From contig MWBE01000009.1 in assembly GCA_002068915.1 (NCBI GenBank), positions 1 through 55,629 on the forward strand: a DNA stretch of 55,629 bases. Direction: 5' to 3'. Every line of letters begins with the position of its first letter. Within the stretch, counting starts at the first letter, position 1. Positions 1 through 11,773 of this stretch are shown here, one piece after another. A program made the translations under genes and the position numbers. The DNA is from Parcubacteria group bacterium ADurb.Bin326. GTDB taxonomy: Bacteria > Patescibacteriota > Patescibacteriia > 2-01-FULL-39-33. The notes under the pieces are model-generated. The model was not told the DNA's origin. It worked only from the letters and a program-made list of their open reading frames with translations, and did no database searches.

Positions 1-86
1 ATAACCGATATGATTAATATCGGTTATTATAGCAAAAAAACCTTGATTTTAAAAGCCTAGTTTATTAAAAAAGTCTTTTAACGTCA

Positions 87-404
87 CTAATTCAGGCCAT
101 CAACCAACTCCTTGATTTCTTGGTAATGCTTTTTGACCACTTCTTGATCTCGAAAGTTTTTAGAAAACTCAGCCAATTCACCCAGCACCTTAATAATCGA
201 TTCTTTAGTGGGGTTATTAAAGTCTCCGCCGGTCTTATCAAAAAACTTCATTATGATCTGCCGACAATATTCACGATTCATATCCTTATCTTGGGGAGCA
301 ATTCCTGCTCCCTCACAATGAGCCTGAGCAAAACAATTAACTACCACATCTCTTACCATCAAGGGAGTAAGCGGTTCAACCAAAGTTATGCCATACTTTT
401 CCAT
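87..404 (-). CDS. hypothetical protein (105 aa)
   Basis: Intact ORF starting 5 nt after the stop of the receiver gene on the same strand. No recognisable motif. Confidence 0.5.
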   Translation of the reverse strand: MEKYGITLVEPLTPLMVRDVVVNCFAQAHCEGAGIAPQDKDMNREYCRQIIMKFFDKTGGDFNNPTKESIIKVLGELAEFSKNFRDQEVVKKHYQEIKELVDGLN

Positions 405-408
405 AAAT

Positions 409-777
409 TTATTTTAATTTCTCTTTGACTTTTTTAATTAAGTCTGCCATCTTCCAATCGCTTTTAACCAGATAATCCCTGACGCCACGCTGTACTGCCT
501 GAGCGGTTTTAGCCGCGTCATTGAGATTGGTTAAAACAATTACTTTTGCTTCCTTGCCTGAAGGCTCCAAACGAAGCAAGCGCAACATCTCCATGCCATC
601 CATTATCGGCATGACAATGTCAAGCAATATCAAATCGGGCTTATAACTTACAAAAGTCTCCAATCCACTTTTACCATTACGAGCCACTCGAACCGAAAAT
701 CCTTCCTTGGATAATTTATTTTTCAATGCCGAGGCCAAAGGAAAATCGTCCTCAATCACTAAAATCTTCTTCTTCAT
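409..777 (-). CDS. stand-alone response regulator receiver (CheY-like)
   Basis: KKILVIEDD...DLILLDIVMPIMDG...VLTN...K layout of a REC domain. 122 aa with no output domain. Confidence 0.85.
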   Translation of the reverse strand: MKKKILVIEDDFPLASALKNKLSKEGFSVRVARNGKSGLETFVSYKPDLILLDIVMPIMDGMEMLRLLRLEPSGKEAKVIVLTNLNDAAKTAQAVQRGVRDYLVKSDWKMADLIKKVKEKLK

Positions 778-802
778 ATACTAATTAATATTGTTTGCAC
801 TA

Positions 803-3243
803 CTAACTTAGTTGCTTGGTGCCCGCTTTAGCCTTCATGCCGGAAAGAGGTATCTTAACCTCAAAAATAGTGCCTCTACCCTCTTCTGACTCAAAAGATA
901 TTCTTCCCCCGGATTTCTCTATAATAGATTTTACCAAATAAAGACCCAGTCCGGTACCCTCGGTGTCAAGCGCTTTGACGTTATCGGCACGGAATAATTT
1001 CTCAAAAATTTTATCTTGCTGAGCTTTAGGAATTCCATAGCCAGTATCTTTGACTGATAAAGAAATTGCGGTTTTTTCCAAATTAAGAGACAACTCAACT
1101 CGGCCACCTTCAGGCGTATATTTGACGGCATTACTTAAGAGGTTCTGGAAGACTATTCGCGTCAATTTGGGGTCAACTTTAATTTTAGGAAGATTCTTGG
1201 CAAAAGAAGATTTAAACAAAAGCTTCTTGGCGCTGATCGATGGTTGTTGTTCTTTGATGACATCTTCCGCCAAAAATTTTAAATCAGTTTCTTGAGGCTC
1301 GATTATGAAAGTTCCCAACTCCAGGCGCGAAGTATTAAGCAAAGCATTAACTAATTCCACCATACGCTGATTGCCACGATAGATTTCTTCCAAATAAAGC
1401 TTTTGTTCTTTATTGATTTTACCGGCATCGCCATCGAGCAACATTTCTGCATACCAGCCAATTGCCGACAAAGGAGTCCTTAATTGATGCGAGGCCAAAG
1501 ACACAAACTCGGTTTTTGCCTTATCAACCTGTTTTTCTTTGGTAACATCCTTCTCAATGCCGACAAAAAATTTAACTTCGCCATTATCCTTATCTAAAAT
1601 CGGAGAAATAGTGGCCATAGCAACATAGGCTTCACCGTTTTTGCGACGATTATTGATCTCAGAACGAATTGCCTGCTTATCAATCTTAATCCTCTTCCAA
1701 AGTTTTTTATAAAAATCAATATCCATTAAGCCGCCCCACAATTCCTTGCTACCCGCTTTTTCCCCAGCATTTCATCGATGGAAAATCCCGTGATGCGCCT
1801 GATTGAATCATTAGCGTAAAGAATTATGCCATCGGGATCAGTGATGACAGTGTGGTCGGAAGCGCCATCCACGGCCAAGCGGAATTTTTCTAAATCACCC
1901 ACGAGAGCTTCGGCTCTGTCTTTTTCTAATTGCAAATCCTCCAAAATATTTAAAGCGGCTTCTTGCTGTTGTGAAGCCTTCTCATTAAGACTAAGAAGCT
2001 GTTTTTCTCTTTCCTTAGATTCGCTGATGTCTGACAAAATCCCCACAATTCCAGTCAATCTCTTTCTAGCATCATTATAAGTTGACTTGTAAATCTTGCA
2101 ATATCTATCCGTACCATCGGCAAATCTAATTCCGGACTCATAAATCTGTCTACCCGGATTGGCTAATAGCTCTTCATCTTTTGATTTATATATTTTGCCA
2201 AATTTTTGAGGCACCAATTCTAGGGCTGTTTTTCCTATTACCTCTTTTCTGTCCTTGCCCATTACTTGATCAAAAAAAGCCTTGTTGCCGCCAACATACT
2301 CTCCTTTTATGTTTTTATAAAATATCAGACTGGGAACGGCCTCTATAAGAGATTGAAAAAAAATTGAGTCATTTTTTCTTTTTAACCAAATCCCCAAAAG
2401 AAACAAAGACGCACCCAATAATGAAAGCAATAAAATTGTTATAATCAATAAAAACCAACGATATTCTAAAATTATCTGCTCCAAAGACATTTTTCCATAA
2501 TTTTCAAACGGCCTCAACCTCAGGGTCCTTAAGGTGTCAGCTACTGAATTATAATTACGCGGAGTACTCCAGCCAGAGATACCGACCGCCTGAGCAACCT
2601 GATGATTAGCTGACATACTATACAAAGCTCTGGCCACACTTCTTGACAAAACGTCATCTGTTCCCGCAATCTTGGCCAACAGCCACTCGGGGTACAGACG
2701 AGTGCTTAAAAGAAATGGGAATTTATGATCATCAGAGTAGCCCTCTCTTAAATTAATTATTTTAATATCAGCCAAATCTATCTTGCCATCAGATGCCAAC
2801 TTTTCCAGAGTATCAGTCCTAGCTGTTCCTGCATCAGCTTCACCGCTAAGTACGGCAAAAACGGCTTCGTCATGCCCGCCGGAAAAAATTAATTTCTTAA
2901 AATCAGTAAAAGGATTTATTTTTGCATCATACAATTCCCTATGGGCGGCCACCCAACCGCCAAAAGAATCTTTGTTTACAGCGACAAACCTCTTACCCCG
3001 CAAGTCTTCCAATTTATTTATATCTAAACGGTCGCTTCGAGTAAAAATAACTCCTCCAAATTCTGTAACCTCTACATCTCCGGATTTGCTAATTACCGTA
3101 GCAATTCTACTGACGGCATAGTCATTTTCCATTTCAACAGCAGATTCGACATCTAAGTCATTGGAAACTATGGCTGATTTTATACCTTCTGAATTCAATT
3201 CTTCTTCTATAACTCGGGCCAACAAAGAATCATCTTCCACCAC
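803..3243 (-). pseudogene. sensor histidine kinase (PhnD-like binding domain, TM, PAS, HisKA, HATPase), frame interrupted
   Basis: ORFs 1726..3243 and 803..1741 are one gene. The upstream part has a PBP/PhnD-like domain (FGGW, SGGHD, DAGTARTD), a TM segment (WFLLIITILLLSLLGASLFLLGIWL) and a PAS start. The downstream part continues the PAS (DFYKKLW..NRRKNGE), then the H-box SLASHQLRTPLS and N/G boxes (LLSNAVKYT, DTGYGIP, GTGLGL). The frames meet near the A5 run (T5 on plus, 1757-1761). One extra base would fuse them. Confidence 0.75.
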
Positions 3244-3362
3244 CAGAACTTTTTTACTCCAATTTGGCTAAAAATAGTTTTAAACATAAAAAAACTTGAT
3301 TTTTACTAGATTTATTAATGTTAATTATGCTCCTTTTATAAAAAAGTGTTAATTTTTTCAAT

Positions 3363-3398
3363 AAAAAATAACCAAGATATTAACTTGGTTATTTTTTT
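3363..3398. terminator. bidirectional intrinsic terminator hairpin
   Basis: AATAACCAAG-ATATTAA-CTTGGTTATT perfect 10-bp stem, flanked by an A-run and a T-run. Confidence 0.55.
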
Positions 3399-3463
3399 GG
3401 GTATCCAACAGCCCGCTTTGCGGGCGTGAAAAATTTGGAAAAAATTCTTTAAGTTTCGTATAT

Positions 3464-3676
3464 TCGAAGTTCCTAAACGAAGCTAGAACCTATTTTAAAG
3501 GAAAAACTTAAGTTTTTTCTTATTTTCCAAAATTCCAAACCAAATTTTTTAAGGCCGTGGCGAAATGCGGGCAAAAAATGACTGGGGGTTGGGGGGGAAG
3601 GAATTTTTGCCCGCCCGCCACGGCTTTGAAGCCCAAATCCAAAAAATGCTTTTTCCTGGCCGGCGCCGATTTTTCG
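3464..3676. repeat. IR-A left arm (about 212 bp inverted repeat)
   Basis: Reverse complement of 7334..7545 with 5 substitutions and 1 single-base indel by hand alignment. Confidence 0.9.
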
Positions 3677-3715
3677 TGTCGCGGCTACTGCCGCGACAGC
3701 CCCGCCTTTAAAAAT

Positions 3716-4048
3716 TTATAATCGCTCTTTAATAATAGCCATTAATTCTTTTTCGTCTGAATAAATTCCGTGTCTCAAAAAAACTAAAATTATTATTGAA
3801 TCATTATCTATTGATTTAAAAACCAACCTATAACCATCTGATTTTCCGCAATTTTCTTTGAGTGGTATCACTCTCGCTTTATATAATCTATCATTGCCCA
3901 ATCCAGAATATTTACAAACACCGGCCGTTTCATTAATTCCCTTTAAACAAAAATAGCGTTCCCATGCCTCCAATGATTCTTCGGGCGCTGGAAATCGCTT
4001 TAATTTCTTAAAATCCTTACCAATATCGCAATGTCGCTCAATCTTCAT
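3716..4048 (-). CDS. RelE/ParE-superfamily (HigB/Gp49-like) toxin candidate
   Basis: 110 aa. C-terminal ...KARVIPLKENCGKSDGYRLVFKSIDNDSIIILVFLRHG... matches the K-x-R...GKSgGYR(l/v)(i/v)(y/f)...I.L pattern of RelE-like killers. Starts 10 nt downstream of the PanA gene. Confidence 0.55.
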   Translation of the reverse strand: MKIERHCDIGKDFKKLKRFPAPEESLEAWERYFCLKGINETAGVCKYSGLGNDRLYKARVIPLKENCGKSDGYRLVFKSIDNDSIIILVFLRHGIYSDEKELMAIIKERL

Positions 4049-4057
4049 ACTCGCTAA

Positions 4058-4618
4058 TTAACAATCTTTGCCATCCATTTCACCATATTTATTGCGATAA
4101 TAAGCCAAGTTATAATCGATTATATCATTTGGCTTAGTGGCAATCCATGGCGCCTCACCATGTGTCGCACTTTTCATTTCCGATCCTGAAAATTTTTCCC
4201 ATTTATCGGCCACTTCCTCAAGCATTACGAGTTCCTCTTTATCAAAAACATTCAAATCGTAAAGTTGCAACGCCTCAATGTGCTGTTGATCGTTAATTCC
4301 AACACCAACCTTCCTATTTGTAACCTTAATGTCTTGCCCTTTCATTTTTGTTAGCATTGCCTCACCGTATTTAGGCACCGGCCCATTTTCCCATCGTAAA
4401 TACACATCGCCGGTCACTGAATGGCCATATTTTTCAAAAAAATCAAAATCTAGATAATAAAGCAGCTTCATCATCTTTAATTTGCCCAAGGTGCCATTCT
4501 GTATTTTGTTAGCGAAATACAAAATAGAATTTCTATACTTTTTACTGTCTATTTTAGCCATAAAACTCAATATTGTCTTGTTGATTTTATTATAACACGA
4601 TTTTAAAAAAGAAACCAA
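4058..4618 (-). CDS. Panacea (PanA, DUF4065/SocA-like) antitoxin-domain protein
   Basis: LGKLKMMKLLYYLDFDFFEKYGHSVTGDVYLRWENGPVPKYG matches the K-L-x-K-L-L-Y-Y...W..GPV.P core of DUF4065. Start is either TTG 4618 (2 nt after the AbrB stop) or ATG 4561. Confidence 0.7.
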   Translation of the reverse strand: MVSFLKSCYNKINKTILSFMAKIDSKKYRNSILYFANKIQNGTLGKLKMMKLLYYLDFDFFEKYGHSVTGDVYLRWENGPVPKYGEAMLTKMKGQDIKVTNRKVGVGINDQQHIEALQLYDLNVFDKEELVMLEEVADKWEKFSGSEMKSATHGEAPWIATKPNDIIDYNLAYYRNKYGEMDGKDC

Positions 4619-4619
4619 A

Positions 4620-4775
4620 CTACTTCCAATCTTTCATAACAATACTACGGCCCCTAGTTATTATTGTCAACTTCTGCTTCTCTTTAAGTTTCAATTTATC
4701 CACAATCTCGGCAGGAATGACGATTGCCAAACTTCGTTTACCAACTCTAGTGATTTTCCTAATGTATTTTTCCAT
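4620..4775 (-). CDS. AbrB/MazE/SpoVT-family small DNA-binding protein (51 aa; below ORF-track cutoff)
   Basis: Hand translation: MEKYIRKITRVGKRSLAIVIPAEIVDKLKLKEKQKLTIITRGRSIVMKDWK. The R-x-G-x-S-x-x-V-x-I-P motif is typical of the looped-hinge-helix fold. Confidence 0.7.
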   Translation of the reverse strand: MEKYIRKITRVGKRSLAIVIPAEIVDKLKLKEKQKLTIITRGRSIVMKDWK

Positions 4776-4776
4776 A

Positions 4777-4802
4777 TTTTTTGTTACGTAGCATGTTACG
4801 TA
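4777..4802 (-). promoter_or_regulatory. operator/promoter module TACGTAACATGCTACGTAACAAAAAAT abutting the AbrB start
   Basis: Tandem GTTACGTA half-palindromes. Nearly identical copy (27/29) upstream of the recombinase at 7814..7839. Confidence 0.5.
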
Positions 4803-4820
4803 ATAAAATTAATTACTATA

Positions 4821-5384
4821 CTATTGAACAATACCTTTTCTCGTAATAATCAGCAAATCTTTATGTAATTCTTGATCGCCAGCATGTAAGGCATCTTTTT
4901 CTTGCCAATCGATAGAATATTCTTCATTATTTAGCCTTTTTAGAACATTATTTATTTTTTCAAACATCGGCTTTTCACGCCAAATAGGATAAATTTCCAA
5001 CTTCCCATTAACTTTAAGTGAAGAAATTGCTTCACCAACCACTTTATTGACATCTAATTCGGTATCAGGATTTATAACTGAACGCATTAAAACCATATCG
5101 AATTGCTCGGGTTTAAAAGGCAAATTATCGACTTGACCAACTACATAATGGCCTTTGACTTTAGCGGCTAATTCTTGGCTAACTGGCGGTCGCAAATCAA
5201 CGCCTACAATGCCATCAATATTATTTTCAAGACAGAATTCAATAAACTGCGCCTCATCGCCACAACCAATATCCAATATTTTTTTATCTTTCAATGCTTC
5301 CGCGTCTAATTCAAAATCATTAATATATCTCTTTGCTTGATCGCTAATTTCTATATTTTGACTGAATCTTTCTGCATTATGCAT
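4821..5384 (-). CDS. class I SAM-dependent methyltransferase
   Basis: Motif I ILDIGCGDE, then a VGVDL acidic loop and FDMVLM motif. 187 aa. Confidence 0.75.
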   Translation of the reverse strand: MHNAERFSQNIEISDQAKRYINDFELDAEALKDKKILDIGCGDEAQFIEFCLENNIDGIVGVDLRPPVSQELAAKVKGHYVVGQVDNLPFKPEQFDMVLMRSVINPDTELDVNKVVGEAISSLKVNGKLEIYPIWREKPMFEKINNVLKRLNNEEYSIDWQEKDALHAGDQELHKDLLIITRKGIVQ

Positions 5385-5392
5385 AAATAATA

Positions 5393-5857
5393 TTATTGTT
5401 GTTTATCCGCTTTTGACGCCTCTCCCTCTAACACCGCCTTCTGTTCGCTCAATAAATGGAATTGATATTGAGGGTATGCTTCTTGCAATGGCCTTTTAAG
5501 ACCAGAAAAAACGTCATTAATAAAAACATGTTTAACGCCACTATCTTGAATTTTTTCTTTATATCCGGAGGTCAAAACTGCCAAGCCGTCTTTATAGGCG
5601 GTGCCACCACCAGTTCCCAGAGCTGAAGCTAATCCAGCTTTAACATCGGCTGGTACTTCAAATGGAGCAGTATAAAAATCATGGTCTTTGCTTATTCCAT
5701 GATCAAGTAAATTCAATAACTGATCGAGTTGTTGGGATTTGGCTACCCCGTGAGCATCATAATTAATTCCTATCTCGCCATCGACTGTTTGGAACATTTC
5801 ATCATTTTCGGGATTAATTCCCTGACTAACCATAAACATCTCGTCCCTAAGCGTCAT
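5393..5857 (-). CDS. hypothetical protein (154 aa); may be the 3' part of a larger gene
   Basis: Same frame as 5963..6547, separated only by one TAA (5963-5965) and a 105-nt open stretch. Confidence 0.45.
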   Translation of the reverse strand: MTLRDEMFMVSQGINPENDEMFQTVDGEIGINYDAHGVAKSQQLDQLLNLLDHGISKDHDFYTAPFEVPADVKAGLASALGTGGGTAYKDGLAVLTSGYKEKIQDSGVKHVFINDVFSGLKRPLQEAYPQYQFHLLSEQKAVLEGEASKADKQQ

Positions 5858-5962
5858 TCGTTTCTTTAATCCTATATCATTGTATTTTTGTTTTATGTCT
5901 TCTACTAATTTAGCCTTTTCCTCGGGGGATAACTCTTGATTATTAGTGTTATGACTCTCTGT

Positions 5963-6547
5963 TTATTTCTCGTTTTCAGTAGATAGTTTTTCCAGATTAA
6001 TATCAGGAGTCCAATCAACTTTTGCAAACCGCTTAAAATCAGGCATTAAATTATCTACTGTATCGCCTGCTTTTATTGGTTTACCCGCCATGGCCGCCCT
6101 CAATCTTTCGTCATATTCCCTGATTTTTTCCTTGCCGGCACCCTTAAATGCTTCAGCCATAAAATTAAAGCCGGCTTTTATATCTCTAGCTTTTTGCTCT
6201 TCTGGCGATAATATTTCTGCGTCTGTCGCTTCTATTAAGGATTGTTCAACTGGCTGAACTGGCAAGCCTAATTCTGTTCTAATTTCGTTAGCCCGATTAG
6301 CTGAATTAATCTCATCCTCCTGAGCCATTCTTTTTGTTTCTTGTCTTGCTTCTTGAGCGAGTAAAACTGCCTCTTTCGATTCTTCTTCTTTATCTTTTTC
6401 CGGATTTAATTTAGCTTCAATGGCTGTTCGAAAAGAATCGGGCAGCCCTTTCATAATTTCTTCGCTCGATTCTCCACTCTGAATACGACCGACATATTCC
6501 TCAACTTTTGCGGCACCGCCAGTTAGTTTTTGTTCTGGATTGATCAT
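5963..6547 (-). CDS. hypothetical Glu/Lys-rich protein (194 aa)
   Basis: Intact ORF with no recognisable motif. Confidence 0.45.
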   Translation of the reverse strand: MINPEQKLTGGAAKVEEYVGRIQSGESSEEIMKGLPDSFRTAIEAKLNPEKDKEEESKEAVLLAQEARQETKRMAQEDEINSANRANEIRTELGLPVQPVEQSLIEATDAEILSPEEQKARDIKAGFNFMAEAFKGAGKEKIREYDERLRAAMAGKPIKAGDTVDNLMPDFKRFAKVDWTPDINLEKLSTENEK

Positions 6548-6561
6548 AACTTGATAATAAT

Positions 6562-6932
6562 TTAATCAGTAACGACTTCAATTGGCTTGATTATTATACT
6601 AAAGCCGCTATCCATTGACTGTGATACTAATTTTAAACTTTCACCGATCAGGATTGTAAAATTTGAATTTGTACTTGATTTCATCAAATCAATGCCACCA
6701 TTAGCCCCCTCGGTTACTAATCCGCTTGATTGGATTTCAATTTTATTGTCATCAACAGAAGTTATTTCTAAAACGGGATGCTTTATGACGAATGCGGCGC
6801 CGATAAATCCGCCGAGGTCTCGCTCGCTTAATTTGTCTCCTACCGAAAAAACTTTTTCAATGTCTTGTGGCTCAGTAATTTTCCCAGCGAGTCCATCCCA
6901 AGCCCTAAGGTTAAAATTGTTCTAACTTTCAT
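6562..6932 (-). pseudogene. frameshifted small ORF (about 122 aa if repaired)
   Basis: ATG at 6932 opens MKVRTIL... and stops after 30 codons. An adjacent frame is open for 119 codons (6565-6921: ...RAWDGLAGKITEPQDIEKVFSVGDKLSERDLGGFIGAAFVIKHP...VVTD) but has no start. One extra T in the T4 run would join them. The plus-strand ORF 6587..6925 is its shadow. Confidence 0.4.
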
Positions 6933-6955
6933 AGTTTTGATTATTAATTAACAAA

Positions 6956-7174
6956 TTATATTAATTCATTAATATTTTTCTTATACATTTTAGCGAACGC
7001 CTTAAGCTCAATAATATCAAGACGATATGACCCCGATTCGACTCGGGAAATATAAGATTGCGGCCGCTTTATCTTCTTAGCCACCTCAATCTGTTTCAAG
7101 CCAGCATCAAGTCGGGCTTGCCGTAATTTCCTAATAAATTCGGCATATTCTTTTGTCCAAACCGTCTTACTCAT
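6956..7174 (-). CDS. XRE-family helix-turn-helix regulator
   Basis: LRQARLDAGLKQIEVAKKIKRPQSYISRVESG is a canonical Cro/C1 HTH. 72 aa. Confidence 0.85.
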   Translation of the reverse strand: MSKTVWTKEYAEFIRKLRQARLDAGLKQIEVAKKIKRPQSYISRVESGSYRLDIIELKAFAKMYKKNINELI

Positions 7175-7333
7175 ATAATAGTATTATATATCCGAAAAAT
7201 CTATATCTAAAATCTGGATATAATATTTTTATTGTGATACTATATAAGGGAGTGCCGTTTGCGCGCGCACGGGAGGGCGGGGCAAGCGCACTTAAAATCT
7301 ACGGGCGGCGCCCCGATGCCCTAAGGCATCGGT

Positions 7334-7545
7334 CGAAAAATCGGCGCCGGCCAGGAAAAAGCATTTTTAGATTTGGGCTTCAAGGCCGTGGCGGGCGGGC
7401 AAAAATTCCTTCCCCCCCAACCCCCAGTCATTTTTTGCCCGCATTCCGCCACGGCCTTAAAAAATTTGGTTTGGAATTTTGGAAAATAAGAAAAAACTTA
7501 AGTTTTTCCTTTAAAATAGGTTCGAGCTTCGTTTAGGAGCTTCGA
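7334..7545. repeat. IR-A right arm
   Basis: Reverse complement of 3464..3676. Directly contiguous with the recombinase 3'-end copy (7543..7701). Confidence 0.9.
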
Positions 7546-7707
7546 CATAAAACAACTTTCCAAAAATTTCGTTTTTTGTTCGCGCCCTTCAGGCGCGAGC
7601 TTAGTGATTTCTTCCCCCAATTTTTCTTTTAATTCAGCCAAGAATTTAAAATCAGAATTCCAATCCCACCCGACTTTCCGCCCCCAGAGGCGGCGGTTCG
7701 TAATCAT
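7498..7707 (-). pseudogene. orphan 3'-end fragment of a serine recombinase gene (IR-B inner arm, 7543..7701)
   Basis: Encodes ...NRRLWGRKVGWDWNSDFKFLAELKEKLGEEITKLAPEGREQKTKFLESCFMS, identical but for one residue to the last 53 aa of the 7853..9369 product. 159 nt with 1 mismatch to the reverse complement of 9205..9363. Confidence 0.9.
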
Positions 7708-7813
7708 TTCGCTTTTGAGATAATTGTGGTCTCAAACGCGGAATGATAGCCGGCTAATGCCGGCACCGTTTCTTTTCACCGCCTCGCCTTAAAGCGAGGC
7801 GACAAAGCCACGC

Positions 7814-7839
7814 TACATAACGTGCTACGTAACAAAAAA
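7814..7839 (+). promoter_or_regulatory. second copy of the TAC(A/G)TAAC(G/A)TGCTACGTAACAAAAAAT module, 13 nt upstream of the recombinase ATG
   Basis: Hand alignment with the reverse strand of 4777..4802. Confidence 0.5.
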
Positions 7840-7852
7840 TAATCCCTTAAAT

Positions 7853-9369
7853 ATGAAATATTTTCTCTACGCCCGAAAGTCGACCGAGAACGAAGAACGC
7901 CAAGTCATGAGTATTGAAGCCCAGCTGGCGGAGTTGGCGGACTTCGCCAAGAGGGAAAATATAGAAATTGCCGAGACGTTCATCGAGAGCAAGAGCGCAA
8001 AGAAACCGGGTCGAGAGATTTTTAACAAGATGATTACCACTATTGAAGCCAGCGCCGAGCCGGTCGGCATCATGGCGTGGCATCCGGACAGGTTGGCGCG
8101 TAACATTATTGATGGCGGACAAATAATTTACTTAATCGACACGGAACGCGTGGTTTCTTTGCGCTTCCCCACATTTTGGTTTGAGCCAACTCCGCAGGGA
8201 TTATTTATGTTGCAGGTCGCTTTCGGGCAGAGCAAATATTATTCGGATAACCTTAGCGAGAACGTTAAGCGAGGCCAAAGGCAGAAGCTCAGGCGCGGGG
8301 AATGGCGCCATATGGGTATATAAACAACGCCAGTACTAGAAATATAGACATTGACCCAGTCAAGGCCAAAATCGTAAAACTGGCGTTCAAGGAGTTTGGC
8401 GAGGGCAAGCATACTTTGTCGAGCTTGAGCGGACGCCTGTTTGAACTCGGAGCAGTCGGTCGTACCGGCAGACCTCTTTGCGTGGCGGTACTGGCGCAGA
8501 TGATGCGGCAAAAAGCGTATATGGGGATAATCACTCGCAAAGGAGAAAGTTATGAAGGCAACTTTGATCCGATTGTTTCCTTGAGCGATTTTGAAGCCGT
8601 CCAAAAACGATTAAAGAGCAAGGCCAAGCCGAGGAAAGTGAAGAAAGGTCATAACTTCCCTTTCGTCGGACTTCTCACCTGTGGCAAGTGCGGAGCGGCT
8701 ATCACGGCACAATACGCGCATGGCCATGGCGGGACATACGTCTATTATCGTTGCACTAAACGGCTTGGCCCCTGCTCGCAAAAATATATCGGATCAAACG
8801 CACTCATCGAGCAACTGAAAGGACGGCTAGAAAAAATCGCTCTTAAAGACGAGTGGGCAAAGTATATGCTCGACGAAGTGACAAAATGGGAAAAAGAGGA
8901 AAAATCCGGCGGCAAGGAATTCGCCCAAAATCTGGAAATGAAGATTGTTGAGGTCGACAAAAAATTGAACATGCTCGTCGACGAATATCTTGAAGGCAAT
9001 ATTGAAAAAGAAATCTACCTAAAGAAGAAAGATGAATTGGTCAAAACAAAAACAGACCTCAATAAGAAGAGATCTGATTTTGGGCGAAAGGGAAACAATT
9101 GGATCGAACCTATGCGAGAATGGATAAAAGAGGCTAATCGCGCAGGAAATGCGGCTTTGTTAAATGATTTTATAGCAATAAAATCATTTGTGAAAAGAAA
9201 CGGAACGAACCGCCGCCTCTGGGGGCGGAAAGTCGGGTGGGATTGGAATTCTGATTTTAAATTCTTGGCTGAATTAAAAGAAAAATTGGGGGAAGAAATC
9301 GCTAAGCTCGCGCCTGAAGGGCGCGAACAAAAAACGAAATTTTTGGAAAGTTGTTTTATGTCGGGCTGA
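7853..9369 (+). pseudogene. large serine recombinase (resolvase catalytic domain, recombinase domain, Zn ribbon, coiled coil), frame interrupted at 8302-8323
   Basis: N-terminus YARKST(catalytic S)...HPDRLARN...KRGQRQKLRRGEW stops at 8323. The -1 frame continues MAPYGYIN...CGKCGAAITAQYAHGHGGTYVYYRC... One extra G after TGG (8303-8305) would give ...RRGEWAPYGY.... Confidence 0.85.
9205..9363. repeat. IR-B outer arm (3' end of recombinase ORF)
   Basis: Reverse complement of 7543..7701 with 1 mismatch (9300, G vs A). Confidence 0.9.
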
Positions 9370-9434
9370 CAGGACTTGAACCTGCGACCTCGTCGTCCCG
9401 AACGACGCGCGCTAGCCAACTGCGCTACAGCCCG
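9361..9434 (-). tRNA. tRNA-Pro (anticodon CGG)
   Basis: Hand-folded cloverleaf: acceptor CGGGCTG/CAGCCCG, D arm GCGC/GCGC, anticodon stem CGTCG/CGACG with loop TTCGGGA (U33, CGG, G37), T arm GCAGG-TTCAAGT-CCTGT, discriminator A. CCA is not encoded. Confidence 0.9.
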
Positions 9435-9584
9435 ATATTGTATTTTAAAAAACGCTTAACCTTGTGTCCCTGAAACAGCCGGCCTACTAGCCAACTGCGC
9501 TACAGCCCGATATTGTATTTTAAAAAACGCTTAACCTCGTGTCCCTGAAACAGCCGGCCTACTAGCCAACTGCGCTACAGCCCG
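9412..9584. repeat. 75-bp tandem repeat: tRNA-Pro nt 1-23 plus 52 nt of upstream sequence, two extra copies
   Basis: TGCGCTACAGCCCG recurs at 9421, 9496 and 9571 (period 75). Units differ by one base (cttgtg vs ctcgtg). Confidence 0.9.
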
Positions 9585-9587
9585 TGG

Positions 9588-10043
9588 TTATTTATTTAAA
9601 ATTTCATAAGCTGCAATACCAAAAGCAACGGAAACATTCAGGCTTTCTTTTATTCCCTTCATTGGAATATGCACTACGGCATCCGATCTTTTCAGTAGCG
9701 ACTGGGAAACGCCATCAACTTCATTGCCAACAATCAACACTAAAGGAAATTTTGGCTTAAATAACTTAACATTTTTACTATTCTTTGTCAATTCTAACGA
9801 CACCGCTTTAAAGCCACGTTTCTTTAATTTATCAATTAACTGCCAAGCGTTTTTGCAATGTTCCCAGGGCACAGAATTTTCAGCACCTAGCGATACTTTA
9901 AGAACCCCCTTTTGTTCGGGGGTTCCTGTTATTCCGCACAAATAAATCTTTTTTACTCCCAAAGCATCGCTAGTACGAAAAATTGATCCGACATTATACA
10001 GACTGCGAATACTATCACAAACCACATAAACTTCCTGGCGCAT
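9588..10043 (-). CDS. SpoU/TrmH-family RNA 2'-O-methyltransferase
   Basis: 151 aa with NVGSIFRTSDALGV, LIVGNEVDGVS and IPMKGIKESLNVSVAFGI motifs of the SPOUT family. Confidence 0.8.
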   Translation of the reverse strand: MRQEVYVVCDSIRSLYNVGSIFRTSDALGVKKIYLCGITGTPEQKGVLKVSLGAENSVPWEHCKNAWQLIDKLKKRGFKAVSLELTKNSKNVKLFKPKFPLVLIVGNEVDGVSQSLLKRSDAVVHIPMKGIKESLNVSVAFGIAAYEILNK

Positions 10044-10046
10044 AAA

Positions 10047-11405
10047 TTAATATTGCAAAACTGTTTTTACCTCCTTGGCCTCTTTTTCTTTGTGGAAAAT
10101 TACCTTCTCGACATTATAAGTGCCATACTTTGGAGCCTCGACAAATCCCTGGATGGCCGCCTCGGCCAACCAGCCGGAATTAAGCCAGTCCATCAGCCAC
10201 TCATTGGTGTATTTAGGATCTTCTTGATCAACTCCCGCACCGATTAGTTGCAACCACTTCTGATTGAAAATTTCCTGGGAACCGATTGGCGGGGCCATAA
10301 TTATCGGCATGCCCAGAGCACAATAAAAACAAAGTTCGCTAGGCTTGGTCCACAAGATATCAGAATTCCTTAGAGCTTTATTAAAAGCTTTGAAGTATTC
10401 GTCCTTGGACGATTTGAATAATATGTTGACTCCCTTACCAATTTCTTTTGACATTCTGGCGTGTCGTAATTCTTGCTTAAAGTATTTGGCCACTCCCTCA
10501 TTTACTCCGGCAACCAAATTGATCCTAACTTTTTTCAAAATTATGTCCTTCTTGAGACTTTTTACTATATCAATTCCCAATTCTCTCTGAGCTCCGGCTC
10601 CGCCAACAGCAAAAGTAATCGTCAATGGTCGAGAAGGATTTAATTTAAGATTACCTCTACCAACTTGCGAGTGTAAAGTTTTCTTATACTGAGAAATATA
10701 CACCTTCTGTGGATCTAATTGTATCAATCTCTTGCCAAGATCTTGTTTCAGAATTTTAAGGCCTTGACCTACGTTTTCTTCCGGCAAAGGAAACCCGGTC
10801 AAAATTATTCTCTCTGGTCTAACGCCATAAAGTTTGAGTCTCTCCTCTACCCTTTTATTTGAAGCCAAATAAATAATCCTGCTTTTGTGGGGCTCCGGCG
10901 GCACCCAGGCACGAGAAATATCGGCGTCGCAAAGTATGCAATAAATATCTTCCGGATAATTGAAAAATTCCGCCATCATTGCTGTGGCAAAAAAAGTTGT
11001 CACTAGTGGCAAAGGCTTTTTTGCTAACTTAGCAATTAAATGTTTACCCCAATCATTGTCACGGAACAATTTATACATCTGTCGCAACTGCATGTTGGAG
11101 TTAGACAGGTCGCGCTTGGGATAAAATTTAGGTATTGCCTGAACCTTATCATACAAATCAAAAACTTTCTCGCCAATGACCGGAACCATCTTGAAGCGAG
11201 ACACGAACTCATAAAAAACTCTGCTATTTTGCCAAATAAATTTATCTGACTTCGGTATTCCCGAATAGCTGTTGGCGGTAATTACGCCGCCTTGAGCAAT
11301 CTTGGAAAACGGATAAGCAGCTCTCTGGTGTCCATAACCCATATCTACGGTTACGACCCAGGCCTTATTGCGATGCTTCGATAACTTATGAATTTTTTTA
11401 ACCAT
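10047..11405 (-). CDS. putative glycosyltransferase (MGDG-synthase/GT28-like)
   Basis: N-terminal DMGYGHQRAA resembles the G-x-G-H loop of MGDG synthase/MurG-like enzymes. Two Rossmann-like halves. Assignment is tentative. Confidence 0.45.
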   Translation of the reverse strand: MVKKIHKLSKHRNKAWVVTVDMGYGHQRAAYPFSKIAQGGVITANSYSGIPKSDKFIWQNSRVFYEFVSRFKMVPVIGEKVFDLYDKVQAIPKFYPKRDLSNSNMQLRQMYKLFRDNDWGKHLIAKLAKKPLPLVTTFFATAMMAEFFNYPEDIYCILCDADISRAWVPPEPHKSRIIYLASNKRVEERLKLYGVRPERIILTGFPLPEENVGQGLKILKQDLGKRLIQLDPQKVYISQYKKTLHSQVGRGNLKLNPSRPLTITFAVGGAGAQRELGIDIVKSLKKDIILKKVRINLVAGVNEGVAKYFKQELRHARMSKEIGKGVNILFKSSKDEYFKAFNKALRNSDILWTKPSELCFYCALGMPIIMAPPIGSQEIFNQKWLQLIGAGVDQEDPKYTNEWLMDWLNSGWLAEAAIQGFVEAPKYGTYNVEKVIFHKEKEAKEVKTVLQY

Positions 11406-11443
11406 TGAAAATAATTATTACTACGTCAAAGATATTATAACAC

Positions 11444-11472
11444 AAAACCCGGTCCTTTAGGAACCGGGTTTT
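11444..11472 (-). terminator. intrinsic terminator after hup
   Basis: ACCCGGTTCC-TAAAG-GACCGGGT hairpin followed by TTTTGTGTT on the minus strand. Confidence 0.65.
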
Positions 11473-11491
11473 ATAAATACTTGTTACAAAA

Positions 11492-11773
11492 TTATAATAC
11501 AGCTTCTTTAGCAGCCTTGGCAACACGGAATTTAACAACCGTCTTGGCAGGAATTTTGATGGTCTCGCCGGTAGCAGGATTTCTGCCTTCGCGAGCCTTG
11601 CGCTGTACTTTGACCAACTTGCCAACTCCTGGAATAGTGAATTCTCCATTCTTCTTTACTTCGGTATAAGCCATGGAGGTCATGTTCTCCATTAAAGCGG
11701 TGACATCTTTCTTGGAAATGCCAGTGGCATCAGCCAAGGAGCCGATGATCTGAGCTTTGGTCATCTTAGCCAT
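11492..11773 (-). CDS. hup: HU-family DNA-binding protein
   Basis: MTKAQII...GEFTIPGVGKLVKVQRKAREGRNPATGETIKIPAKTVVKFR is the HU/IHF signature. Confidence 0.93.
   Translation of the reverse strand: MAKMTKAQIIGSLADATGISKKDVTALMENMTSMAYTEVKKNGEFTIPGVGKLVKVQRKAREGRNPATGETIKIPAKTVVKFRVAKAAKEAVL

Follow-up and report, generated by a model that had tools for sequence, protein, structure and literature searches.

In the archaeal "suicidal" tyrosine integrases of SSV1, pTN3 and pT26-2, the recombination site lies within the integrase gene, which is disrupted when the element integrates into a tRNA gene; the intact gene itself acts as the control of directionality, and the class, which is of the Phage_integr_3 type, is described as exclusively archaeal (PMC8371274). 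Here we describe an island from Parcubacteria group bacterium ADurb.Bin326 (contig MWBE01000009.1, positions 1 to 55,629), for which these integrases are, by analogy, the closest known idea. The whole stretch of 55,629 nucleotides that was analysed is called the window below. The island takes up positions 3464-9363 of the window (5.9 kb); a large serine recombinase (LSR) inserted it where a tRNA-Pro(CGG) gene has its 3' end. As in the SSV type, the recombination site lies in the open reading frame (ORF) of the element's own integrase gene, named int in the following, and this gene is disrupted by integration. In contrast to the SSV type, the host is a bacterium, the enzyme is a serine recombinase, and no tyrosine enzyme of the Phage_integr_3 type is present. 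Moreover, the gene of the SSV type is split into two large halves and has no spare copy, whereas int of the island loses about 14 codons and is accompanied by what appears to be an inverted spare 3' end. Our preferred reading, to which we assign a probability of about 0.5, is that integration truncates int and that an inversion between repeated arms, probably by homologous recombination, restores the full gene; the two states would lock and unlock the island for excision.

With respect to its enzyme, the island resembles the LSRs of phiC31, Bxb1, A118/LI and SPbeta in the domain set, the fold, a short attP/attB core, hybrid attL and attR sites, and a motif shift of 5 bp. The recombinase has a size of about 505 residues and comprises the Pfam domains Resolvase (PF00239), Recombinase (PF07508) and Zn_ribbon_recom (PF13408); Ser10 and Arg8, which are located within the motif YARKST, are invariant. 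An AlphaFold2 (AF2) model of a close relative matches the structures of the SPbeta, Bxb1, phiC31 and LI integrases with E values between 1e-19 and 1e-10. A sequence search for solved structures gave no close match to the recombinase, and the integrases of the phage collection are at most 29% identical to it. Compared with the LSRs of phages and islands, the island differs in that it targets a tRNA gene at its very 3' end, that attP lies inside the integrase ORF, and that a second, inverted attP with long flanks exists; a directionality factor is not recognisable.

Several inversion systems show a partial likeness. In Salmonella, the gene of the recombinase Hin lies inside an invertible segment that is bracketed by inverted repeats, and in the case of Gin and Cin the inversion exchanges the C-terminal ends of a protein. 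Hin, Gin, Cin and Pin are small serine invertases of about 190 residues with a C-terminal helix-turn-helix (HTH), 26-bp sites and a Fis enhancer. In contrast, the much longer enzyme of the island possesses recombinase and zinc-ribbon domains, the arms, with 90-215 nt, are long and homogenised throughout, the protein that is changed is the recombinase itself, and flipping is probably due to homologous recombination. The original prediction for this DNA had called the layout shufflon-like. The R64 shufflon relies on Rci, a tyrosine recombinase, on sfx sites of 19 bp and on numerous alternative ends of pilV; it has in common with the island invertible segments with shared arms and an inversion that alters the C-terminus of a protein. 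Nevertheless, the comparison fits poorly: according to the domains of its proteins, the island has no tyrosine recombinase, and there is neither a set of short crossover sites nor a shuffling of gene ends over many segments. There are two segments, only one of which has a coding consequence when inverted (the cargo segment has none), and the arms are halves of attachment sites. In the 2-micron plasmid of yeast, which uses FLP, the FRT sites lie inside 599-bp inverted repeats. As in the island, long inverted repeats with a recombinase target split a circle into two unique segments, one of which contains the recombinase gene; however, 2-micron is a replicating plasmid with a tyrosine recombinase and with amplification, whereas no replicon is evident in the island and most copies are chromosomal. 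Finally, in the cluster G mycobacteriophages BPs and Brujita attP is located in a coding sequence, and integration alters the encoded protein's C-terminus and hence the life-cycle decision. In these phages the affected protein is the repressor and the integrase is a tyrosine enzyme; an inverted spare end and an inversion are not known from them. In a survey of the full-text literature whose coverage was incomplete, and which included programmed inversions, Dehalococcoides ssrA islands, tycheposons and Integrase-On-Demand, the architecture was not found described.

The island is organized by two pairs of inverted repeats. According to the repeat search, positions 7543-7701 (arm B') and 9205-9363 (arm B, the 3' end of int) are reverse complements of 159 nt, which are 99% complementary, have one mismatch and are separated by a spacer of 1503 nt. 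The mismatch (G at 9301, T at 7605) specifies alanine in the gene and threonine in the orphan copy B'. The second pair, arm A (3464-3676) and arm A' (7334-7545), consists of 182 nt at 97% and 44 nt at 91% identity, and the pairs A/A' and B'/B overlap by 3 nt (TCG). Apart from one 75-nt tandem repeat beside the tRNA, the 55.6-kb window contains no other long repeat, which excludes a chance origin of both inverted pairs. A minus-strand ORF of 69 residues (7498-7707; MITNRRLWGRK...FLESCFMS KLLNEARTYFKGKT) has the same final 53 residues as the recombinase, followed by KLLNEARTYFKGKT. Thus, the central claims of the original prediction were confirmed: an inverted 159-bp copy of the recombinase 3' end with one mismatch, an orphan encoding the last 53 residues and then another tail, and a layout A...A'B'...B with a shared middle arm. 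Equally, about 90% of the recombinase gene and its upstream region do lie between the arms B' and B, and an inversion would exchange the C-terminal tail and the 3' context of the recombinase, as had been stated.

Three junctions delimit these arms. Read in the same direction, the left junction is ...TTTCGTATAT TCG AAGTTCCTAAACG..., the middle junction (as reverse complement) is ...GTTGTTTTATG TCG AAGCTCCTAAACG..., and the right junction is ...GTTGTTTTATG TCG GGCTGACAGG..., i.e. the tRNA's 3' end. TCG is the sole sequence common to these junctions, which are host/A, B/A and B/tRNA, and for this reason A and B were assigned as the two halves of an attachment site. Judged from the junctions, B, which falls within the 3' end of int, is the predicted left half of attP, with A as the predicted right half; we assign attL to host/A at position 3464 and attR to B/tRNA at position 9363. 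The middle arm (7334-7701) is then identified as an intact inverted copy of the recombined B/A junction, in other words of attP. Between the core and the stop codon of the integrated int there are 6 nt; up to the native stop the distance is about 14 codons. The core comprises 3-9 nt in 16 further complete loci of the family described below and is often TGGTCG, the reverse complement of the tRNA end ...CGACCA; the host side of attL is not conserved. Counted from the junction, the motif [TC][TC]GAA[CT] begins at +13 of the tRNA half-site in 39 of 56 loci and at +18 of the A half-site in 18 of 56; the A side holds a second copy at +7. In LSRs, the motif for the zinc-ribbon domain is 5 bp nearer to the centre in attB than in attP half-sites (PMC3783163), and the offset between +13 and +18 agrees with this shift.

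The layout is a trait of a whole family. With the repaired recombinase as query, 5748 related proteins were found at E <= 1e-20. The GTDB species representatives, with one genome per species, contain at least 585 loci, 80 of which were retrieved for analysis; the search of each locus with its own int 3' end for an inverted copy covered 82 loci. The sampled loci stem from many Patescibacteria lineages, Omnitrophota, Bacteroidota and others; identity to the query ranges from 54 to 85% among their integrases. In 73 of the 82 loci, the search detected such a copy 15-750 nt upstream of int. Among the nine loci without it, the upstream sequence is shorter than 100 nt in five, and in another one the contig end cuts int; the orphan 3' fragment, which the original prediction had proposed to look for in related islands, is present in 73 of the 76 testable loci. 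The copies have a length of 33-238 nt (mostly 90-200) and are mostly 98-100% identical to the int 3' end in use. The common layout is A-cargo-A'B'-int-B/tRNA. In about 45 loci, the outer limit of arm B falls 3-5 nt within the 3' end of a tRNA gene that is encoded on the opposite strand; the targets are mostly tRNA genes for Pro, else for Met, Arg, Phe, Gln, Trp, Asp, Lys, Ser, His, Ile and Ala. A pair A/A' exists in 16 further loci having enough upstream DNA, with the second copy 1-9 kb upstream; these arms comprise 91-433 nt, are 85-100% identical and, in most cases, share about 3 nt with B'. Throughout the family a single cargo gene is conserved, that of an XRE regulator (64-73 residues), which always adjoins A' and is divergent from int. 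The other family cargo includes genes for type II restriction-modification, Fic, LexA-like proteins, AAA ATPases and toxin-antitoxin systems. As only three relatives were found in 2.9 million viral contigs, the elements are chromosomal islets, neither prophages nor phage-borne. They constitute a large, apparently undescribed family of small mobile islands.

Two observations concern individual assemblies. Assemblies seem to break at the arms: in 34 of the 80 GTDB loci, a contig end is found upstream of int at a distance of no more than 500 nt. The related locus L002 contains three A copies (3370-3578, 9505-9830 and 11366-11749): B/A follows int, and the third A, which is 92-96% identical to the others, points to either two related elements in tandem or a hybrid junction.

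The arms of one locus resemble each other more than they resemble those of other loci. For nine loci, the identity of B to B' is 88-100% within a locus, with seven of them at 95-100%, against 53-94% between loci. The arms group by locus and not by position, which indicates concerted evolution and lends support to the ongoing gene conversion that the original prediction had considered. Its assumption of a recent duplication, however, did not hold, as the arrangement is ancient and was inherited across recombinases that are 54-85% identical. One might argue that the orphan arm is a functionless leftover of a second, mostly deleted copy of the element. In L001, a locus from the same host species, the orphan is indeed in decay (the arms share 88% identity, there is no tail any more and A' retains 18 nt), and the third A copy of L002 hints at tandem elements. 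This explanation is contradicted by the occurrence of the same arrangement with the same boundaries in nearly all testable loci across phyla, by the concerted evolution of the arms and by the preservation of the reading frame; we count it as refuted.

This reading frame deserves a closer look. In about 45 of 58 loci, among them loci with diverged arms, the orphan read in the frame of int remains open across the arm and leads to a conserved tail, W-S-x-(L/I)-L-N-x-(A/V)-R-T-(Y/F/H)-F-E. At the DNA level, CGAACC is fixed within the tail, and the codons for Leu, Phe and Glu vary synonymously; the tail is therefore constrained as protein as well as DNA. In the AF2 model, the crossover falls into the middle of the C-terminal helix (residues 494-520). 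In the integrated orientation, int lacks the native tail and either stops immediately (...WSG, then stop) or reads through into the complement of the tRNA. At its inner boundary the orphan has no conserved start codon and frequently no in-frame start upstream at all, and the idea that it is an independent small gene was rejected on these grounds. According to the preferred reading, the A'B' block would be a silent spare 3' end composed of the last 53 codons, the native tail and a downstream hairpin, an assignment that shares the roughly even chances of the reading as a whole.

Both orientations of the int segment were found in nature, in line with the inversion that had been predicted. In L084 the order is tRNA-Pro(GGG) (plus strand)/B'-int→B/A→HTH (plus strand), which means that the int segment is inverted with respect to both flanks; its arms are 95% identical. 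L064 is likewise flipped, with arms of 91% identity. Because their arms have diverged, these two loci cannot be assembly artefacts. Furthermore, one element from Buchananbacteria is represented by assembled contigs in both states: the protein of P0247 has 577 residues and reads into the tRNA, whereas those of P0248 and P0249 have 521 residues and the native tail. The bodies are identical or differ only at a single-nucleotide polymorphism (SNP) of the arm. P0249 carries the SNP of the orphan arm and is located upstream of, and co-directional with, an HTH gene and a gene for a 312-residue protein; in contigs of the truncated state the same two genes are divergent from int. An alignment of L085 and L086 places the switch point inside the 159-nt arm. 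About a quarter of the full-length family ORFs in metagenomes bear the native tail, and among the 80 representative genomes 58-67 are in the truncated state and few are flipped. One metagenome scan, aimed at an unoccupied site or a second state within the species, gave no empty site and a single further occupied contig, L103.

Some contigs with unusual ends were considered separately. L090 (1-2154 / 8599-10752) and L096 (1-1419 / 2938-4356) have perfect terminal inverted repeats of 2154 nt and 1419 nt, respectively; these span the whole int segment or the HTH end, are very probably assembler walks, and were set aside as evidence. L091 (1-8456; also L094, L095 and L097) reads int→B/A→distal cargo ... 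HTH and has neither a tRNA nor a host flank. With a length of about one element unit, it is consistent with an excised circle having both attP copies, or with an assembler walk.

In mechanistic terms, the preferred reading is as follows. As attP sits inside the 3' end of the integrase's own gene, insertion into the tRNA-Pro 3' end would split it into attL (host/A) and attR (B/tRNA). Integration would thereby remove the last 14 or so codons of int, encoding the conserved C-terminal helix motif ..LLNEARTYFE..; these codons are now found at attL, at a distance of 5.9 kb. The stable, locked form would be the truncated state, in which int points into the tRNA. Recombination between B' and B would invert the int body, join it in frame to the spare end and restore a full-length Int while the element is still integrated. 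RecA-type homologous recombination would do the flipping and, through gene conversion, would keep the arms identical. In the flipped state, which is the rarer one in representative genomes, full-length Int would allow excision, so that direction might be controlled in the absence of a separate directionality factor. The strong bias towards the truncated state fits such a lock, with the flipped state as a rare unlock.

That homologous recombination and not Int flips the segment is suggested by four observations. The arms are homogenised over their full length; the flipped molecules P0248 and P0249 bear either arm SNP, which argues against a single fixed crossover point; and the arms of the window are 99% and 97% identical despite a broken int. 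In addition, recombination by LSRs is known for attP × attB and, with a directionality factor, for attL × attR, whereas attP × attP is not known (PMC3783163).

Several points weigh against the lock. The functional importance of the 14-residue tail, and with it the supposed effect on activity, is deduced from conservation; the same stretch also overlaps the attP half-site, where CGAACC is invariant in the DNA. For the recovery of the tail on excision the spare end is not needed, as attL × attR rebuilds B/A anyway, and a gating of excision by flipping presupposes that truncated Int is unable to excise. The A arms, with 148-433 nt, are longer than a tail plus a terminator need, and the long hairpin predicted for the RNA of arm A has a stability no greater than that of shuffled controls (z = -0.57). 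In L055 and L063 the int stop precedes the core, yet the repeat is retained. The heterogeneity of orientation within a population was seen in assembled contigs, and near-identical arms can mislead assemblers into wrong flanks. Finally, in L033 (941-2936) the upstream arm abuts tRNA-Pro(GGG) and the downstream arm tRNA-Pro(CGG), and in L045 (9633-11562) the upstream arm abuts tRNA-Pro(CGG) and the downstream arm enters a tRNA-like sequence before the contig ends; in neither case does an A arm adjoin int. This pattern suggests that the internal site may itself recombine with tRNA targets, which would favour a site-based role.

Such a role, the main rival of the preferred reading, is unlikely in our judgement, although we give it real weight. 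It holds that what counts in the middle arm is the DNA site as such, which would be a second functional attP or a high-affinity Int operator between the divergent HTH and int promoters, and that the swap of the tail is incidental. The site could serve integration via either attP, the autoregulation of int, or recombination with further tRNA targets. The middle arm does contain both complete half-sites and the core, and it is always located between the XRE gene and the upstream region of int. The arms of L033 are joined to two different tRNA-Pro genes, as expected if the second attP had recombined with a second attB, and L045 is similar; moreover, L091, L094 and L095 (int→B/A→distal cargo, no tRNA) are consistent with circles that contain two attP copies. 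On the other hand, an LSR site needs about 50 bp, whereas the arms comprise 90-430 nt per side and are homogenised throughout. Equivalent attP copies would predict equal orientations, but approximately 58-67 of the 80 genomes show one. The frame of the orphan and the native tail are intact even where the arms have diverged, and a pure DNA site needs neither.

The region between B' and int offers further clues. It contains a terminator-like hairpin, GCCGGCTAATGCCGGC, followed by a T-run (7749-7776), a second hairpin (CGCCTCGC...GCGAGGCG; 7780-7801) and, just 5' of the int start, the operator-like repeats GCTACATAAC / GCTACGTAAC of the form GCTAC(A/G)TAAC (7812-7833). Conservation extends to L001 for the hairpins and to both L001 and L002 for the repeats; in L002, the repeat motif also occurs upstream of another cargo gene (4973-5000). 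These repeats are likely to be an operator for the XRE protein. A promoter-like site for the XRE-type regulator was found at 7211-7183, and a consensus promoter scan of 7702-7852 found no int promoter. The idea that the tRNA promoter drives int in the flipped state was rejected, as the conserved terminator-like hairpin lies between the arm and int.

These features also bear on the notion that control occurs at the RNA level, either by a B' transcript that is antisense to the int 3' end or by pairing within one long transcript. The arms are perfectly complementary, and the conserved terminator-like hairpin between B' and the int promoter indicates that transcription is managed there. However, this terminator would keep B' out of the int mRNA, and the promoter scan found no promoter driving rightward transcription across A'B'. 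In the Rfam search, the tRNA was the sole match. As RNA pairing tolerates G-U pairs and mismatches, it accounts neither for 100% identity at the DNA level nor for the pair A/A'. We regard control by RNA as improbable.

Still less probable is a function resembling that of the 2-micron plasmid, in which the repeat would serve a free circle and flipping during replication would amplify the copy number. The inferred circle, int - repeat - cargo - inverted repeat, is formally that of 2-micron, and with L091 a unit-length contig without tRNA exists. Against this, no replication gene is conserved: the cargo consists of restriction-modification, toxin-antitoxin or defence genes, and only XRE is common to all. 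Most copies are chromosomal, and attP × attP is a site pair on which LSRs are not known to act (PMC3783163). A single-stranded circle, in which pairing of A with A' and of B' with B rebuilds attP in the manner of the CTXphi attP or the integron attC, was rejected: a serine recombinase cuts both strands, and two hairpins and a chromosome with hairpin ends would result. The cargo also has no genes for a single-stranded life cycle.

The features of the island are compiled in Table 1. The first 45 nt of arm A code for the native tail, (K)FLNEARTYFKGKT and stop, and are followed by a long GC-rich hairpin.

Table 1. Positions of the arms, the genes and the integration target of the island in the window.
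Feature	Position	Strand	Remark
Arm A	3464-3676	+	island left end; attL = host DNA/A; TCG core 3464-3466
Variable cargo	3677-7333	-	all genes on minus strand
orf110	3716-4048	-	cargo
SocA/Panacea antitoxin-like	4058-4618	-	cargo
MazE/AbrB-like	4620-4775	-	cargo
Methyltransferase	4821-5384	-	cargo
orf154	5393-5857	-	cargo; no assigned function
orf194	5963-6547	-	cargo; no assigned function
XRE-type HTH regulator, 72 residues	6956-7174	-	cargo; adjoins A', divergent from int
Arm A'	7334-7545	-	inverted copy of A: native-tail coding (KLLNEARTYFKGKT, stop) and hairpin
Arm B'	7543-7701	-	orphan inverted copy of the final 53 int codons
Unique region upstream of int	7702-7852	+	hairpins and operator-like repeats
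int (large serine recombinase gene)	7853-9369	+	ORFs 7853-8323 and 8302-9369
Arm B	9205-9363	+	int 3' end in use; outer end TCG 9361-9363 = attR junction with tRNA
tRNA-Pro(CGG)	9360-9434	-	integration target; last bases from arm B

The int copy of the window is defective. In comparison with L001, L003 and L005 it has lost 10 nt (GCCGGGAATG) near 8303 (between 8298 and 8310), between GGAATGG direct repeats; the break is thus a 10-nt deletion and no simple frameshift, which adds to the earlier account. Judged from this deletion, the copy is a pseudogene, probably dead and immobile. In its integrated state the gene ends with ...FLESCFMSG, the stop codon lying inside the tRNA gene.

The window was also compared with L001. 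To the right of the tRNA the host chromosomes are 99.6-99.7% identical, whereas the int regions are only 88% identical. When L001 (2397-2728) was compared with positions 1-141 and 7543-9363 of the window, its B resembled that of the window (94%) and its orphan B' that of L003 (88-90%). The shortened A' of 18 nt is joined to the homologue of window positions 1-141, and a counterpart of 142-7515 is missing; L001 is a mosaic, decaying derivative. Next to the tRNA, positions 9412-9636 of the window contain three tandem 75-nt units, each composed of the 23-nt 5' end of tRNA-Pro and 52 nt of upstream sequence. Units 1 and 2 are 99% identical, and unit 3 has only the tRNA part in common with them. 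L001 has one extra unit (4464-4729); the copy number therefore differs between strains. In the left flank of the window, the minus strand bears two ORFs that overlap; one (1726-3243) encodes a phosphonate-binding/PAS protein, the other (803-1741) a PAS/HisKA/HATPase protein, and together they resemble one sensor kinase split in two. This region (803-3243) is missing from L001.

Tentatively, we propose that the island represents the first bacterial, serine-type "suicidal" integrase: a C-terminal helix that the enzyme removes from itself would lock the island, an inverted spare end would permit rare unlocking, and the direction of the reaction would be written in the arrangement of the DNA, across hundreds of restriction-modification and defence islands in Patescibacteria and other phyla. 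If true, this would be a new way to control the direction of the serine-integrase reaction, whose reversal today depends on a separate protein factor in nature as well as in the tools of genome engineering. It would also extend the idea of the suicidal integrase (PMC8371274) to bacteria and to the unrelated serine family, with a built-in rescue device. In practical terms, the inverted arms account for metagenome contigs that break or fold back at these genes, and the family offers a large set of compact integrases with predictable tRNA target sites. The islands move restriction-modification, toxin-antitoxin and defence genes in bacteria of the Candidate Phyla Radiation, whose mobile elements are poorly known.

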